64,000 nucleotides of DNA from Octopus vulgaris (taxonomy: Eukaryota), in assembly GCA_951406725.2 (NCBI GenBank), contig OX597830.1:76756001-76820000 (forward strand), written 5' to 3'. The translations under genes were made by a program, and so were the position numbers. Positions 691 through 47,467 of the stretch are shown in pieces. Every line of letters begins with the position of its first letter. The first letter of the stretch is position 1. Under the pieces are notes generated by a model. That model did not search any database and was not told the DNA's origin. It worked only from the letters and a program-made list of their open reading frames with translations.

Positions 691-1412
691 CTGGGCCACT
701 CATATAAACACCAAAGTTGACATGGCCCGCAGAATGTGTTCCTGGATTCTCAGAACTTTCCAGTCGAGAGATATCCACACCATTATCCTTCTCTTCTCCA
801 CTTTTGCCCGACCCCACCTTGAATACTGTTGTCCACTGTGGTCTCCCCACACAATACAAGGTATCATAAAAGTTGAAGCACCTCAAAGGGCAATCACAAA
901 AAAGATAGATGGCATGACAGGCCTCGACTATTGGGGTCGGCTAGAAAAGCTAAAACTCTATTCTCTCCAACGTCGTCGTGAGCGCTACATCATCTGCATG
1001 ATGTGGAAAATATTCCATCAGCATTGCCCAAATGATGTTGGCATCACCTTTAAGGTACATCCAAGGCTTGGGCCCCGTGCCATCCGCCCAAAACAAAAAT
1101 CGCACTCTCATCTCATAACAACAATACGGCACAATTATTTCACCTCAATTGGCCCCGCTCTCTTTAACATTACACCAAAACACATTAAAACAGAAACTGA
1201 CCCTATAGGGTTCAAGAAGTCTTTGGACAGATTCCTTCAAGAAATCCCGGATAAACCCCCTACACCCGGATATGTCTCTGTAAACAATAACTCTCTACTT
1301 GAGTGGGCCATAGTGCCCAAATTCTGACTTGAAAGACTTCACCAGGTGGTGCTATTAAGTTAGACATGGCTCCAATAATGGCCGAAACCTATCAAAGTAT
1401 CAAAGTAAAGTA
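691..1412 (+). mobile_element. 5'-truncated CR1/L2-group LINE 3' end (RT C-terminal region plus 3' UTR)
   Basis: The ORF to 1327 reads [53 protein letters not shown], typical of CR1/L2-type ORF2 C-termini. It ends in a short repeat tail (atcaaagt x2) and is flanked by (TA)n. Confidence 0.85.
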
Positions 1413-1424
1413 TATATATATATG

Positions 1425-1456
<32 letters not shown>

Positions 1457-1572
1457 TATAAATAGATATATACATATATACATAAACGCATACACACATA
1501 TGTGTATATATGTATGCATATATATATATATATATATAAATATACATATAATTATATATATGCATGTATATA

Positions 1573-1629
<57 letters not shown>

Positions 1630-1785
1630 AAATAAATATAAGAGAGTGGTCACTATATTGCTCACTCTAGCACCAGTTAATCCAAAAGGTTTCAACCACG
1701 AAAATACATGCTTACCATGAAAGTCAGTACGATTGTTAGCTCACACGGACAGGGCAAATAAAAAATAACAAAAATACAGATTATT

Positions 1786-1866
1786 TTGGGACAATTGTTT
1801 CGCTATTAATGAATTAAATGTAATTTTACTTACAAAAAAAAAATCCATTTGTAGCTCGTCAGCCAA
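1786..1866 (-). ncRNA. Minimal type I hammerhead ribozyme, copy 1
   Basis: Minus strand: ttgg CTGACGA gcta [~50 nt] tagc GAAA caattg TC ccaa. Canonical core, stems I and II pair, palindromic stem III, GUC cleavage triplet. Confidence 0.85.
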
Positions 1867-2323
1867 GACTATCTGGATGAAATCCACTCAATCACACGCC
1901 AGATATTACCATAACGATAAATACGCGTGTGGTTCAATTGATTACATCCGACGTTATAATTCAAATGCCCCAACCAACAGCGCGCCAAACTTTCACGGAA
2001 AACAAATACAGCATTTAGAAATAAATGCAGCATAATTATAATTAATTAATAAGGGTGAGAGAATTAGATACTAATTTAATAGCATATTTATTCAACACCA
2101 AGTGGCCTAGTGCTTCGAGAAACCTGGATTATTATAATATTTTATAACATATTATAATATTTTTACAAAATAAATATAAGAGAGTGGTCACTATATTGCT
2201 CACTCTAGCACCAGTTAATCCAAAAGGTTTCAACCACGAAAATACATGCTTACCATGAAAGTCAGTACGATTGTTAGCTCACACGGACAGGGCAAATAAA
2301 AAATAACAAAAATACAGATTATT

Positions 2324-2402
2324 TTGGGACAATTGTTTCACTATTAATGAATTAAATGTAATTTTACTTACAAAAAAAATCCATTTGTAGCTCGTCAGCC
2401 AA
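2324..2402 (-). ncRNA. Minimal type I hammerhead ribozyme, copy 2
   Basis: Same motif. The stem II closing pair is G-U (tagt GAAA) instead of G-C. Confidence 0.8.
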
Positions 2403-2859
2403 GACTATCTGGATGAAATCCACTCAATCACACGCCAGATATTACCATAACGATAAATACGCGTGTGGTTCAATTGATTACATCCGACGTTATAATTCAA
2501 ATGCCCCAACCAACAGCGCACCAAACTTTCACGGAAAACAAATACAGCATTTAGAAATAAATGCAGCATAATTATAATTAATTAATAAGGGTGAGAGAAT
2601 TAGATACTAATTTAATAGCATATTTATTCAACACTAAGTGGCCTAGTGCTTCGAGAAACCTGGATTATTATAATATTTTATAACATATTATAATATTTTT
2701 ACAAAATAAATATAAGAGAGTGGTCACTATATTGCTCACTCTAGCACCAGTTAATCCAAAAGGTTTCAACCACGAAAATACATGCTTACCATGAAAGTCA
2801 GTACGATTGTTAGCTCACACGGACAGGGCAAATAAAAAATAACAAAAATACAGATTATT

Positions 2860-2939
2860 TTGGGACAATTGTTTCGCTATTAATGAATTAAATGTAATTT
2901 TACTTACAAAAAAAAATCCATTTGTAGCTCGTCAGCCAA
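2860..2939 (-). ncRNA. Minimal type I hammerhead ribozyme, copy 3
   Basis: Same motif as copy 1. Confidence 0.85.
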
Positions 2940-3491
2940 GACTATCTGGATGAAATCCACTCAATCACACGCCAGATATTACCATAACGATAAATACGCG
3001 TGTGGTTCAATTGATTACATCCGACGTTATAATTCAAATGCCCCAACCAACAGCGCGCCAAACTTTCACGGAAAACAAATACAGCATTTAGAAATAAATG
3101 CAGCATAATTATAATTAATTAATAAGGGTGAGAGAATTAGATACTAATTTAATAGCATATTTATTCAACACCAAGTGGCCTAGTGCTTCGAGAAACCTGG
3201 ATTATTATAATATTTTATAACATATTATAATATTTTTACAAAATAAATATAAGAGAGTGGTCACTATATTGCTCACTCTAGCACCAGTTAATCCAAAAGG
3301 TTTCAACCACGAAAATACATGCTTACCATGAAAGATGTCTATGAGTGCGTATGTGCATGCATGTGTATGCGTGCTTACACATGTATGAAGATAGGTATGC
3401 GTATATGCTAATGTCTGCTTATATGTTTAGTTATAGTAACAATACTTTTACATTAATCTATACTTTTGTAGAGTACAAATTTATTATTCAT

Positions 3492-31810: not shown

Positions 31811-31908
31811 GATTAAAATATTAAAATTAAAATCTTTTAATCTTCGGATTTCTTTAATATGCTAGGCCACTGGTTTTAATTGAGTAATATCAATTTCTAC
31901 CCTTATTC

Positions 31909-31964
<56 letters not shown>

Positions 31965-37623: not shown

Positions 37624-37659
<36 letters not shown>

Positions 37660-37822
37660 TGACGTATATTTGCCATCTCAATATGGCTACCCCTAAGGGT
37701 GGATGCTACTGTAGTTTTTAGCCCCAGGAGGACACACTCCTCCAGCTGGCCATAGACACACTATCTGTGTCCTGTCAGTATTTGCAAAGGGAAGTCATCC
37801 TTCCCGTCTTCAACTTATGATA

Positions 37823-37867
37823 CACACGGACTCGAGTTTCGAGGTATTGACCTCTCGTCAGCGTGTG
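37823..37867 (-). ncRNA. Minimal type I hammerhead ribozyme
   Basis: cacacg CTGACGA gagg tcaata cctc GAAA ctcgag TC cgtgtg. Perfect core and stems. Confidence 0.93.
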
Positions 37868-38174
37868 ACAATCATAGTTGTCGGCGAGAATTAGATTTCC
37901 TTCACAAATACTTATACTTTTTCCAGCGTCCACTGTCGCTGATATTGAAAAAGTGAAATCAAACAATGATAAATATCAAAGTGAGTTATATACAGTAGCG
38001 GTAACACATCGTGACGTATATTTGCCATCTCAATATGGCTACCCCTAAGGGTGGATGCTACTGTAGTTTTTAGCCCCAGGAGGACACACTCCTCCAGCTG
38101 GCCATAGACACACTTTCTGTGTCCTGTCAGTATTTGCAAAGGGAAGTCATCCTTCCCGTCTTCAACTTATGATA

Positions 38175-38219
38175 CACACGGACTCGAGTTTCGAGGTATT
38201 GACCTCTCGTCAGCGTGTG
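38175..38219 (-). ncRNA. Minimal type I hammerhead ribozyme
   Basis: Identical motif, 352 nt from the previous one. Confidence 0.93.
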
Positions 38220-38526
38220 ACAATCATAGTTGTCGGCGAGAATTAGATTTCCTTCACAAATACTTATACTTTTCCAGCGTCCACTGTCGCTGATATTGAA
38301 AAAGTGAAATCAAACAATGATAAATATCAAAGTGAGTTATATACAGTAGCGGTAACACATCGTGACGTATTTTTGCCATCTCAATATGGCTAACCCCTAA
38401 GGGTGGATGCTACTGTAGTTTTTAGCCCCAGGAGGACACACTCCTCCAGCTGGCCATAGACACACTTTCTGTGTCCTGTCAGTATTTGCAAAGGGAAGTC
38501 ATCCTTCCCGTCTTCAACTTATGATA

Positions 38527-38571
38527 CACACGGACTCGAGTTTCGAGGTATTGACCTCTCGTCAGCGTGTG
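38527..38571 (-). ncRNA. Minimal type I hammerhead ribozyme
   Basis: Identical motif, 352 nt from the previous one. Confidence 0.93.
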
Positions 38572-38875
38572 ACAATCATAGTTGTCGGCGAGAATTAGAT
38601 TTCCTTCACAAATACTTATACTTTTTCCAGCGTCCACTGTCGCTGATATTGAAAAAGTGAAATCAAACAATGATAAATACAGTAGCATCCACCCTTAGGA
38701 GTAGCCATATTGAGATGGCAAATATACGTCACGATGTGTTACCGCTACTGTATATAACTCACTTTGATATTTATCATTGTTTGATTTCACTTTTTCAATA
38801 TCAGCGACAGTGGACGCTGGAAAAAGTATAAGTATTTGTGAAGGAAATCTAATTCTCGCCGACAACTATGATTGT

Positions 38876-38920
38876 CACACGCTGACGAGAGGTCAATACC
38901 TCGAAACTCGAGTCCGTGTG
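38876..38920 (+). ncRNA. Minimal type I hammerhead ribozyme in the inverted arm
   Basis: cacacgctgacgagaggtcaatacctcgaaactcgagtccgtgtg read directly on the plus strand. Confidence 0.93.
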
Positions 38921-39126
38921 TATCATAAGTTGAAGACGGGAAGGATGACTTCCCTTTGCAAATACTGACAGGACACAGAAAGTGTGTCTATGGCCAGCTG
39001 GAGGAGTGTGTCCTCCTGGGGCTAAAACTACAGTAGCATCCACCCTTAGGGGTAGCCATATTGAGATGGCAAATATACGTCACGATGTGTTACCGCTACT
39101 GTATATAACTCACTTTGATATTTATC

Positions 39127-39162
<36 letters not shown>

Positions 39163-43358: not shown

Positions 43359-46000
43359 TTAATTTCTCTGTGTCAGTATGTTCGGATGGTTGAGTCTGGG
43401 TTTGTACTTTTCAATGAAGAATGTTTCCTTGTTCAGTCTCATTTGTGTTGATGATCCGAAAGCAAATTGGTAAAATGGGAAGATTAAAAATTGTGGCAGT
43501 AGTTGCTTTGCGCATTTCTCAATGTGCTCACTAAAAGGTATCATTCTATATTCTGGGAATGCAATCTGTTGTCGATGCAGTGTGCATCTACGCCTGAGTG
43601 ATAGTCCCGTGGAACCCACGTAGTCTTGGTAGCAGCCCGAGCATTTAATAACATAAATTATGTTTTCAGAGGCACAAGTAAAGTTAGATTTGATCTTGAA
43701 TTTCTGTCCCTCTTTAAAGAAGAATTCTGATCCTTCCAATAGGTTAGGACATGTTGCACAGTTCGATCTACCACATTTCTTTACTTTTGCATCCGTAATT
43801 TTAGAAGACAATTTTGCCTTTGTGAGAATCTTTTTAAGTGATTTAGGCTGTTTGTAGCTTTTAATGATTTGGTGTATGTTTAGAATTTCCTTTAATTTTG
43901 GGTTTTTATGAAGTATTGGTAAATTCTGGGTGATGATGGTGAAGGCTTCTTTGTTTCTGGGGTTGTATGTAGATATGTAAGGTAGTATTTTCGGGAAGGT
44001 GTGTTGTTGTGTTGAACTTTTCTTAAAGTTTCTATGTTGATTTCTGTTGCACGTCTGATCCCATCCTCTATGAGTTGAGCTGGGTAATGTCTATCAATTA
44101 GGGTGTTTTTGAGTTCTTGCAGTCTAAAGTTCCTGGTATTTTGTTCTGACACTATTGTGCATATCCTTCTTGCAAGGTTGAAGGGGATGTTTGTTTTAGT
44201 GTGTCTTGGGTGGCATGAATTTAAAAGAAGGTATTGTTTGGCGTCTGTGGCTTTGTAAAAAATGTCTGTTTCTATTTTAAGGTTAATTTTTTTAATTAGT
44301 ATATCCAAGCACGGGAGCTCCTTTTGGTTGTATTCGATTGTGAACTGTATATTTGGGTTTATGCTGTTCAATAGGTTTTTAAATTTTAGGAGTTTATCTA
44401 TGTTTTCATTCCAGAGAATGAAACAATCGTCTAGGAATCGTTTCCAATTCTCTTTTATGTATTGAGAGAGGGAGTTTCCAAAGATTGATAGAGATTCCTG
44501 GTAAATGATTATTTCCATGTATCCCATTGTTAAGTTCGCAATGACTGGTGCTGCCCTTGTACCCATAGTAATTCCGGATTTTTGACGGTAAAATGTATTG
44601 TCAAACATGAAGTGGTTATTGTGTAGGATGAATTCAATTGATTTAGTAATGAATTCCTTACTGATCCTTTTTGGTATTTCTTCCGGAAATTGGTCTAACC
44701 AGAACTGTATTGCCTCCAGTCCATAATTATGAGGTATACTGGTATACAAGTTGACTACATCAAATGAAACCAGGATTGTTTCTTCCTTGGTTTTTTTTGG
44801 AAGGTGGTTTAACATATCTAAGTCATCTCTGATATGGCTATCGATATGTTTAAGGAAGGGTTTCAGGAGGATGTCCATAAGTAGACCTAGTCTGTGTGTT
44901 TCACAGGTTGGGCCAGCTACAATGGGTCGTAGTTTTAGGTCCCCCGGATTAGGTGTGTGTATGTATGTCTTTGGTGATTTTTTAATGGTTTCATTTATAA
45001 TTTGACTTTTATGAATTTTTGGCAGACCATAGAAAAGGATAGGTTTGCATTTAAAGTTTGTTAGGAAATCAATCTCTTTGGTTGTCAGTTCCTTTTCATG
45101 GGTTTTAATTAGTGAAGATAGAGTTTTCATTATTTTTTGTGCGGTGTAGTTGGTAATTTTTTCATAATGTAGGTCTTCATCAAGCAAGGAAATTACAAGA
45201 TTTCTGTAGTATGATGTATCCATTATTACAACTGCATTTCCCTTGTCCGCTTCCTTAATGGTTATATCTTCATCATTTTGGAGTTCTATCAGTTCTTTCC
45301 ATTGTGTAGTGTTAAAATTTGGGTTAGCTTTCTGTTTATGTATAGTATGGTAGGGGAAGTTCTCAATGTGGTTACAGAATTCGTCAAGATCTTTATTTCT
45401 TCCTCTGTGTGGGATGTGTTCACTTTTGTTCTTGACTAGTGATTCATCTTCAGTATTGAAACTGTTTGATGCTTCTGCTAGTCTTAATTTTCTGCAAAAT
45501 TCTGTTATATTATCCTTGAGTTCATTTAGGTTTGCTCTGCGTGGAGTTGGTGTAAATTTGAGCCCTTTTGCGAGGATGTCAATTTTTATGTTAGAAAGAG
45601 GTTTGGTTGAAAGATTGATTATCTTCGGTTTTTCCTTATTACTAGGTTCCAGCCTGTGTCCTGGTGTCCCTGGTCCCTGGCTAAAAAATGTTGAGTGTAA
45701 TTTTGTTTGTATGAGTTGTCTGTGAGGTTGTGTGGTATTTGGTCGGGGGAGTGGTGGTATTGTTGCCTCCGATCGTTGTGTGTGTGTGGGAATCTATGGT
45801 TGTTAATGCTTGTGGTGTGTGTAAAATTTCTGTATGGGAAATATTTTTGTTTCGAACTTCTTGTATGTGGGATGTTGCTTGACATAGTGTTTCTTTGCGT
45901 TTGTCTTGTGTTTAGTGGGGACCAGTAGTTTTGGTTCATGGGGTAGTAGTGATTTGTGTGTGGTGTATTTCTTATCCTAGTGTCGTTTCCCCATACAGAA
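43359..46000 (-). pseudogene. PLE polyprotein (N-terminal region, RT, Cys-rich linker, GIY-YIG) with a frameshift at ~43993
   Basis: LAKGLKFTPTP, EADKGNAVV, FYGLPKIHK, LRPIV, SFDVVNLYT, GITMGT, RFLDD, CGRSNCATC, IIYVIKC..YVGST. One C is missing relative to the plus arm (cttcccg vs cttccccg). Confidence 0.92.
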
Positions 46001-46003
46001 ATT

Positions 46004-47467
46004 TTAGATATGTTAAACCACCTTCCAAAAAAAACCAAGGAAGAAACAATCCTGGTTTCATTTGATGTAGTCAACTTGTATACCAGTATACCTCATAATT
46101 ATGGACTGGAGGCAATACAATTCTGGTTAGACCAATTTCCGGAAGAAATACCAAAAAGGATCAGTAAGGAATTCATTACTAAATCAATTGAATTCATCCT
46201 ACACAATAACCACTTCATGTTTGACAATACATTTTACCGTCAAAAATCCGGAATTGCTATGGGTACAAGGGCAGCACCAGTCATTGCGAACTTAACAATG
46301 GGATACATGGAAATAATCATTTACCAGGAATCTCTATCAATCTTTGGAAACTCCCTCTCTCAATACATAAAAGAGAATTGGAAACGATTCCTAGACGATT
46401 GTTTCATTCTCTGGAATGAAAACATAGATAAACTCCTAAAATTTAAAAACCTATTGAACAGCATAAACCCAAATATACAGTTCACAATGGAATACAACCA
46501 AAAGGAGCTCCCGTTCTTGGATATACTAATTAAAAAAATTAACCTTAAAATAGAAACAGACATTTTTTACAAAGCCACAGACGCCAAACAATACCTTCTT
46601 TTTAATTCATGCCACCCAAGACACACTAAAACAAACATCCCCTTCAACCTTGCAAGAAGGATATGCACAATAGTGTCAGAACAAAATACCAGGAACTTTA
46701 GACTGCAAGAACTCAAAAACACCCTAATTGACAGACATTACCCAGCTCAACTCATAGAGGATGGGATCAGACGTGCAACAGAAATCAACATAGAAACTTT
46801 AAGAAAAGTTCAACACAACAACACACCTTCCCCGAAAATACTACCTTACATATCTACATACAACCCCAGAAACAAAGAAGCCTTCACCATCATCACCCAG
46901 AATTTACCAATACTTCATAAAAACCCAAAATTAAAGGAAATTCTAAACATACACCAAATCATTAAAAGCTACAAACAGCCTAAATCACTTAAAAAGATTC
47001 TCACAAAGGCAAAATTGTCTTCTAAAATTACGGATGCAAAAGTAAAAAAATGTGGTAGATCGAACTGTGCAACATGTCCTAACCTATTGGAAGGATCAGA
47101 ATTCTTCTTTAAAGAGGGACAGAAATTTAAGATCAAATCTAACTTTACTTGTGCCTCTGAAAACATAATTTATGTTATTAAATGCTCGGGCTGCCACCAA
47201 GACTACGTGGGTTCCACGGGACTATCACTCAGGCGCAGATGCACACTGCATCGACAACAGATTGCATTCCCAGAATATAGAATGATACCTTTTAGTGAGC
47301 ACATTGAGAAATGCGCAAAGCAACTACTGCCACAATTTTTAATCTTCCCATTTTACCAATGTGCTTTCGGATCATCAACACAAATGAGACTGAACAAGGA
47401 AACATTCTTCATTGAAAAGTACAAACCCAGACTCAACCATCCGAACATACTGACACAGAGAAATTAA
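46004..47467 (+). CDS. 5'-truncated but uninterrupted PLE RT-core/thumb/GIY-YIG reading frame
   Basis: The 503-aa ORF has SFDVVNLYTSI, GIAMGT, RFLDD, LPFLD, SCHP and IIYVIKC..YVGST..R..H. Its first ~16 aa come from the inversion junction. Confidence 0.85.
   Translation, partial: LDMLNHLPKKTKEETILVSFDVVNLYTSIPHNYGLEAIQFWLDQFPEEIPKRISKEFITKSIEFILHNNHFMFDNTFYRQKSGIAMGTRAAPVIANLTMGYMEIIIYQESLSIFGNSLSQYIKENWKRFLDDCFILWNENIDKLLKFKNLLNSINPNIQFTMEYNQKELPFLDILIKKINLKIETDIFYKATDAKQYLLFNSCHPRHTKTNIPFNLARRICTIVSEQNTRNFRLQELKNTLIDRHYPAQLIEDGIRRATEINIETLRKVQHNNTPSPKILPYISTYNPRNKEAFTIITQNLPILHKNPKLKEILNIHQIIKSYKQPKSLKKILTKAKLSSKITDAKVKKCGRSNCATCPNLLEGSEFFFKEGQKFKIKSNFTCASENIIYVIKCSGCHQDYVGSTGLSLRRRCTLHRQQIAFPEYRMIPFSEHIEKCAKQLLPQFLIFPFYQCAFGSSTQMRLNKETFFIEKYKPRLNHPNILTQRN

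Follow-up and report, generated by a model that had tools for sequence, protein, structure and literature searches.

An array of tandem units of about 537 bp in the genome of Octopus vulgaris (GenBank assembly GCA_951406725.2) represents, judged by sequence features, a non-coding, dispersed non-LTR retrozyme that forms a family of its own. The unit carries a predicted self-cleaving type I hammerhead with an unusually long stem II, and the whole is probably best explained as a retrozyme that is pasted into (TA)n tracts by an RT-endonuclease of the Hydra clade of Penelope-like elements. The retrozyme class is already known and the unit length is ordinary; the points of interest are the long-stem hammerhead, a two-end insertion rule, and the link to the Hydra clade. 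Here, we report the analysis of a 64,000-nt stretch (contig OX597830.1, positions 76,756,001 to 76,820,000; hereafter the window) and of related loci across the genome. Published work is compared through the available parts of the cited sources.

Array and hammerhead motif

The array (1629..3334, minus strand) consists of 3.2 near-identical units of 536-538 bp that are about 99% alike, as a preliminary description of this DNA had reported. Identity between copies is 99.1-99.3%, unit anchors stand at 1640, 2178, 2714, and 3251 (spacing of 538, 536, and 537 bp), and the last copy is partial (84 bp). The unit has a GC content of 32%, and its longest sense stop-to-stop frame is 58 codons. The window holds one arm only, 5'-truncated at unit position 67, with its 3' end at a site termed end site A (1629..1668, minus strand; ~160 nt past the cleavage site). 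A hairpin (1643-1668) stands before site A, and sister subfamilies have its stem as well. The 3' end of the arm abuts a (TA)n microsatellite (1411..1628, no strand), the insertion target. Internal copies have their site A at 2167, 2703, and 3240. End site B (2037..2061, minus strand; ~290 nt past the cleavage site) is internal in the window array, which holds further copies of it at 2573-2597 and 3110-3134, and is the 3' end of the opposite arm at other loci; the 130 nt separating sites A and B are referred to as the tail. Tandem Repeats Finder, with a period limit of 500, did not detect the array. Just left of it, between two TA tracts, a fragment at ~690-1410 resembles a LINE 3' end in its reading frame.

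Predicted type I hammerheads lie on the minus strand at 1783..1869 (copy 1), 2321..2405 (copy 2), and 2857..2942 (copy 3). Their stem II regions span 1802-1855 (54 nt), 2340-2391 (52 nt), and 2876-2928 (53 nt), and cleavage is predicted between 1790 and 1789, 2328 and 2327, and 2864 and 2863, respectively. The core (CUGANGA...GAAA...NUH) is complete in 3/3 full copies, all with CUGACGA, GAAA, a CAAUUG palindromic stem III, and a UC cleavage site; the earlier claim of a minus-strand core and caattg stem III in each unit therefore holds for the three full units and does not extend to a fourth core. Stem I is ~7 bp in all three copies, and the base of stem II (GCUA/UAGC, 4 bp) encloses 46, 44, and 45 nt in copies 1, 2, and 3, respectively. 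Additional stem II pairings that had been proposed (AAUG/CAUU and UGUAA/UUACA) are present in the predicted fold, and the substitution in copy 2 does leave a G-U, as the first stem II pair. The array copies also vary in a U-run within the stem II insert, and N7 and position 17 vary across subfamilies, as in hammerheads.

Stem III (ACAAUUGU) is predicted to form a self-duplex of 8 bp between two copies (-6.4 kcal/mol), and its pairing probability in the predicted monomer fold is <0.01; a short palindromic stem III and a dimer mode have been described for metazoan hammerheads (PMC4209133). An Rfam scan gave 0 matches at the gathering score for the whole window, and no hammerhead family at E<=10. 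This miss has little weight because the short-stem hammerheads of a 352-bp array in the window were missed too, and of the expectation that a long insert would defeat standard searches, the silence of Rfam is borne out, but cannot be blamed on the insert alone. The two units are unalike, as first described (local scores of 19 and 22 versus null means of 19.5 and 19.7). A guessed GT-AG intron after the cleavage site was discarded (donor not conserved across copies; no such joint among the contigs examined).

Genomic family, fold, and insertion anatomy

A genome search with one unit gave 1448 first-pass candidates, the best 40 of which hold 208 matches; full-length matches among these 40 are 98-100% identical and spread over many contigs. 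Older subfamilies stand at ~94%, 79%, 62%, and 50% identity to the window unit, and sister subfamilies (50-80% identical) repeat at 523-535 bp where tandem copies were observed. A descriptor search allowing a long stem II, as the preliminary description had suggested, returned 2145 exact motif matches in the genome versus 0 for a reversed control. Three consecutive full-hammerhead units stand in the window array, and two or more units in a row, each with a full type I hammerhead, define a non-LTR retrozyme (10.64898/2026.07.22.740005).

The whole unit and its head-to-tail joint were covered by contigs of 4/4 public runs (4 studies, 3 organism codes; 3 runs guessed to be RNA), contigs which cannot separate circle, tandem transcript, and DNA, nor show start or end sites. 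The unit was present in 19/21 listed public runs (three organism codes), none recorded as RNA. In one public run, contigs from related but different families aligned with parts of the unit and had greater depth than it did.

A diverged inverted fragment that had been placed at ~31845-31915 is real, and belongs to a sister family: it is a tail/end-B fragment (31828..31912, plus strand) followed by (TA)n, not a copy of the window subfamily. Its match to the 537-bp unit is marginal (5/1000 shuffles score as high), and its source, the most distant of the subfamilies, has ~535-bp units (751 first-pass candidates, best 40 at 91-100%).

No ORF joined in cis to the unit was found among 115 lineage loci screened, of thousands. 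An ORF fragment lay in the flank of 12 of the 115 (in one flank screen, a SINE-like repeat in a reference swamped the signal, and ORF-level matches alone were pursued), and seven ORF-bearing loci (L034, L041, L089, L119, L175, L176/L156, and L191) were judged by eye to be separate insertions or a head-to-head chimera. Hydra fragments near L119 and L175, tried as joined partners, proved to be separate insertions.

Covariation was assessed with 13 lineage subfamily representatives (L124, divergent and of another family, was left out). Because the aligned rows were chosen by a pattern that holds the core, invariance of the core is no independent evidence; the stems played no part in the choice. 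Across the 13 representatives, 92% of cells were paired versus 80% when shuffled (0/500 shuffles reach this value), and slid controls of the same set paired at 30-43%. The covariation looked for across genomic copies was present, with 45 two-sided changes versus 16 in shuffles (0/500). Two-sided change occurred in 6/7 stem I pairs and in 5/8 stem II pairs, of which four are basal and one belongs to the extension. Changes in the insert's terminal hairpin were one-sided only, and in 8/13 sequences the first pair of stem II was unpaired. Among 56 motif types found by core and palindrome alone, which are non-independent, stem I pairs at 4/5 positions in 43 (shuffled partners, 11.9; maximum, 20).

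Folded as a circle, the monomer had an MFE of -140.8 versus -105.5 +/- 5.3 kcal/mol (40 shuffles), with stems I and II formed in the predicted fold; the isolated hammerhead folded weakly better than shuffles (z -1.8, 8 of 200). Core and stems are retained through ~40-50% divergence between units, and the covariation indicates that the predicted ribozyme fold is under selection. The stem II extension varies in length, from 23 nt (one copy with a deletion) through 31-46 nt (sister families) to 52-54 nt (window), and therefore looks tolerated, not required; most likely, it is a tolerated structural module that was inherited from a Hydra pLTR and not a catalytic need.

Insertion ends were surveyed at 57 loci (the 40 with the best scores and 17 taken from the first pattern matches; subfamily D loci L071-L073, distant copies of 72-78% identity, were omitted). 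Head-to-head double arrays made up 35/57 loci, and 22/57 were counted as single. Thirty of the 35 double arrays were A+B and 5 were A plus another or unrecognised end, with no A+A or B+B pair among the 35; the single arrays had their 3' end at A (13) or at B (9). (TA)n adjoins 90/92 ends, the 5' ends of the 57 loci are variable and scattered, and the arms overlap by 0-10 nt at the junction in 31/35 double arrays. Arms are up to 12 units long, and after site B tandem copies run directly into the next unit, up to 12 times. The retrozyme loci thus carry 5' truncation, an inverted 5' arm, and a tail at one end, the signature described for Penelope-like elements (PMC8557442).

Candidate partner elements

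A looser pattern returned 3604 further long-stem motifs versus 4 controls, and short-stem motifs with the same stem III numbered 1921 versus 10 controls. For this one stem III type, long-stem-II pattern matches exceed short-stem ones (2145 + 3604 versus 1921); long-stem-II forms outnumber short ones, and therefore censuses with short-helix descriptors would undercount hammerheads. Between the arms of five head-to-head pairs picked by pattern lay broken pieces of ORFs with GLYRDD, CxCX5C, or similar sequence, and protein searches led to young families with open frames of ~840, 980-1090, and 778 aa (intact ORF range, 775-1091 aa). DKT is present in 4/4 of the partner ORFs, CxCX5C in 3/4, RW in 4/4, and exact RWK in 1/4, and the elements end at TA repeats. 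The Hydra clade is defined by DKT, RWK, a CxCX5C linker, and a (TA)n target (PMC8557442 section 11); by these motifs, on which the label rests, the partner ORFs fit that clade. Two named homologues of a Hydra-type ORF are from Argonauta hians (43-44%). Young Hydra-type families that combine intact ORFs with long-stem-II hammerheads number at least three (L111-L115, L131-L150, and L243-L250); their stem III palindromes are CAAUUG, CAUAUG, and CGAUCG, and the 778-aa family has the core variant CCGAAGA.

A hammerhead with a 51-60-nt stem II region was found in 20/28 protein-picked Hydra loci; the remaining 8/28 were without a hammerhead, and 0/28 had the short-stem form only. Several Hydra loci have a hammerhead both before the ORF and at the 3' end, and some other hammerheads at these loci may be nested insertions. 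Short and long ends occurred at 13 two-armed Hydra-type hammerhead loci, plus two nested pairs in L149; one two-armed locus (L141) had the same end on both arms, and 2 loci were not measurable. Hydra-type tails are ~85-150 nt, bracketing the 130 nt of the retrozyme. A long stem II, as predicted here, is common to many families of the genome, including autonomous Hydra-clade elements.

A direct junction was found at locus L251, where a 1.4-unit sister-retrozyme arm, ending at site A, stands head-to-head with a 5'-truncated Hydra arm, without TA between them; the end of the Hydra arm is that element's long site, which lies 139 nt beyond the cleavage site of the same element. This chimera is a single case, and its retrozyme subfamily is ~62% identical to the window unit. 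The chimera (L251:4214-7470) sits within the 3' region of another Hydra-type copy. The unit had no blastn match at E<0.05 to 20 Hydra loci, and a profile of 8 subfamily copies matched Hydra and Neptune-type pLTR hammerheads at E>=0.1 only, its strong matches being separate retrozyme insertions in flanks. No autonomous element sharing the unit sequence was found in 20 Neptune-type, 20 pattern-picked, and 20 + 8 Hydra loci or by the profile search.

Another young RT-GIY-YIG family (intact, 753 aa; 14168 first-pass RT candidates) also sits in (TA)n and has two ends; its DKG and CX4CxxC linker suggest that it is Neptune/Nematis-type. Elements of this family have a hammerhead-like motif that is degenerate and short in stem II; their tail measures ~48 nt (21 readings, 7 of them informative). 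The degenerate motif (core starting UUGA) occurs with a palindromic stem III (L089:2220-2260, the L041 pLTR, and L091-L094) and persists in copies that are young and intact. At L034, L041, L089, and L176, Neptune-type fragments neighbouring retrozyme arms were rejected as partners, being separate insertions with (TA)n or other sequence intervening.

Mechanism, alternatives, and known systems

In the mechanism that we favour, the arrays would be transcribed, and neighbouring hammerheads would pair via their palindromic stem III to release 537-nt monomers that are ligated into circles. The Hydra protein would cut both strands of a (TA)n tract; one 3' end would prime reverse transcription at A and the other at B, with copying that goes around a circle or follows a multimer over as many as ~12 units, and the truncated 5' ends of the two cDNAs would be joined via a few bases of microhomology. 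More specifically, we are evenly divided on a bipartite Penelope-like integration in which two (TA)n strands are primed at two fixed RNA sites on independent templates (possibly different RNA species, including ribozyme-made circles copied a dozen rounds), coupled with a long-stem-II hammerhead variant that Hydra-clade elements and their retrozyme passengers bear in thousands of copies in this genome and that is missed by standard models.

The nearest biochemical parallel is Poseidon PAc of the green anole (PMC11167929), whose purified protein cuts and extends both strands of AT-rich DNA and whose tail is likewise defined by two internal RT start sites, the tail being longer here. In vitro, the start sites of PAc did not differ between strands and ribozyme cleavage was not needed, whereas the retrozyme arm pairs in this genome (30 A+B, none with one end used twice) imply one site per strand or per protomer. 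With the near-strict rule of one arm per site, the long-noted Penelope 'tail at one end' becomes a model of strand-specific priming that can be tested and that departs from the only in vitro result. Cleavage assays on predicted frog retrozyme dimers showed no cleavage in 8/9 (10.64898/2026.07.22.740005).

Mobilisation by another Penelope-like clade (Neptune/Nematis-type or unsampled), with the long stem II inherited or convergent, would accommodate both the young intact 753-aa family in (TA)n with its two ends and the absence, among the sampled Hydra pLTRs, of any that matches the unit in sequence. We consider it unlikely, given the degenerate motif, short stem II, and ~48- versus 130-nt tail of the Neptune/Nematis-type elements, the separation of their fragments from the retrozyme arms at all four loci named above, and the fact that the sole direct junction observed is with Hydra (L251). 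The template could instead be an uncleaved multimeric transcript, with a hammerhead that is weak or inactive alone and no circle. Contigs cannot distinguish circle from tandem, stem III is predicted not to form in the monomer, unprocessed RNA served for transposition by PAc in vitro and the PAc ribozyme depended on the protein (PMC11167929), and hammerheads of metazoan Penelope-like elements cleave poorly in vitro (PMC4209133); yet core and stems were kept despite ~40-50% unit divergence, the monomer is predicted to fold as a well-paired circle, arms reach 12 units, and related mollusc retrozymes yield abundant circles (PMC7229834), which together make this template improbable.

The initial description had left open an independent retrozyme or a pLTR family. 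The former is upheld by dispersal and covarying stems, and the latter is disfavoured, no ORF-joined copy of this subfamily having been observed among the 115 lineage loci screened. We regard it as very improbable that the unit is the pLTR of an autonomous element with unsampled ORF-bearing copies, even though autonomous Hydra elements have the same ribozyme design in their pLTRs and the screen for Penelope-like ORFs covered 115 lineage loci of thousands, 12 with a flank ORF fragment: tandem copies continue past site B into the next unit up to 12 times, the seven ORF-bearing loci are separate insertions or a head-to-head chimera, and the sister subfamilies (50-80% identical) repeat too, at 523-535 bp. 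Local expansion of a satellite through unequal crossing-over, or an artefact of the assembly, would fit the ~99% identity within the array, and DNA-level expansion of some arrays is possible; as an account of the family it is hardly credible beside the 40 best loci on many contigs, with their fixed 3' ends, variable 5' ends, and inverted arms, and the recovery of unit and head-to-tail joint in contigs of all four public runs (4 studies, 3 organism codes).

The Hydra-mobilised retrozyme that we prefer resembles animal non-LTR retrozymes in its low-GC tandem units, type I hammerhead, absence of an ORF, and dispersal, and in its circular RNA intermediate and Penelope-like mobilisation, both of which are proposed (PMC7229834; 10.64898/2026.07.22.740005). 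Its length, previously taken to be special, falls inside the range of consensus lengths published for that class (51-972 bp; 2026 preprint, 10.64898/2026.07.22.740005); experimentally shown invertebrate retrozyme circles are ~170-400 nt (PMC7229834). It differs in its 52-54-nt stem II region (4-bp stem II and small loop in the published retrozymes; PMC7229834; 10.64898/2026.07.22.740005), in its strict two-end, two-arm (TA)n insertions, and in a partner that points to the Hydra clade. The words 'inverted' and 'microsatellite' are absent from the available main text of PMC7229834. Earlier papers argue for the retrozyme partner from co-occurrence and pLTR similarity (PMC7229834; 10.64898/2026.07.22.740005); the chimera and the shared ribozyme design provide genomic evidence that names a partner clade for an animal retrozyme, and a bench test is practical, given that one genome holds both young intact Hydra ORFs and a passenger family that is itself young.

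(TA)n targets, a canonical CUGANGA core, 5' truncation, an inverted arm, and a one-end tail are shared with the Hydra clade (PMC8557442), from whose elements the retrozyme differs in having no ORF. Published Hydra hammerheads, including Hydra-1_oBim, have a stem II of 3-7 bp and loops of 3-10 nt (PMC8557442 file S2), and published Hydra tails are 30-40 bp (PMC8557442), compared with stem II regions of 51-60 nt and tails of 85-150 nt in the Hydra-type elements here. Core halves 35-50 nt apart are listed for PLE-X1 of Selaginella and Naiad 'HHR_half_core', where they are flagged as deviating from canonical (PMC8557442), and long spacers occur in two spike-moss PLE-X motifs and several Naiad half-cores (PMC8557442 supplement). 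PLE-X1 and Naiad are single listed cases in that source, whereas the octopus forms comprise thousands of copies in many families, with covariation.

The terms 'ribozyme' and 'retrozyme' are absent from the main text, as available, of a recent octopus repeat annotation (PMC13282606). In the literature searched, with most subscription papers outside it, we found no report of the strict one-site-per-arm rule or of the 537-bp family, and no paper that deals with retrozymes of cephalopods or with 'long stem II' hammerheads. An existing catalogue may already list the family as a repeat without a name (Repbase, Dfam, and preprint supplements lay outside the comparison).

Other hammerhead-bearing or Penelope-like sequences were observed in the window and elsewhere. 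In the 352-bp array (window 37656-39128), the hammerhead has a short stem II (14 nt), an inverted arm runs from ~38680, and (TA)n adjoins both outer ends, between which the difference is a 43-nt tail; another partner may serve this array, because its tail is close in length to the ~48-nt Neptune/Nematis-type tail. An abundant short-stem-II hammerhead family (L239-L242; 16-nt stem II) has two ends ~87 nt apart and follows the same short/long arm pattern. At window ~44400-46400, two opposite-strand Neptune-type RT motifs (WKRFLDD) probably mark a two-armed Penelope-like insertion, and at ~26740 (plus strand) a hammerhead-like motif has a 39-nt stem II region, a CGAUCG stem III, and a weak stem I.
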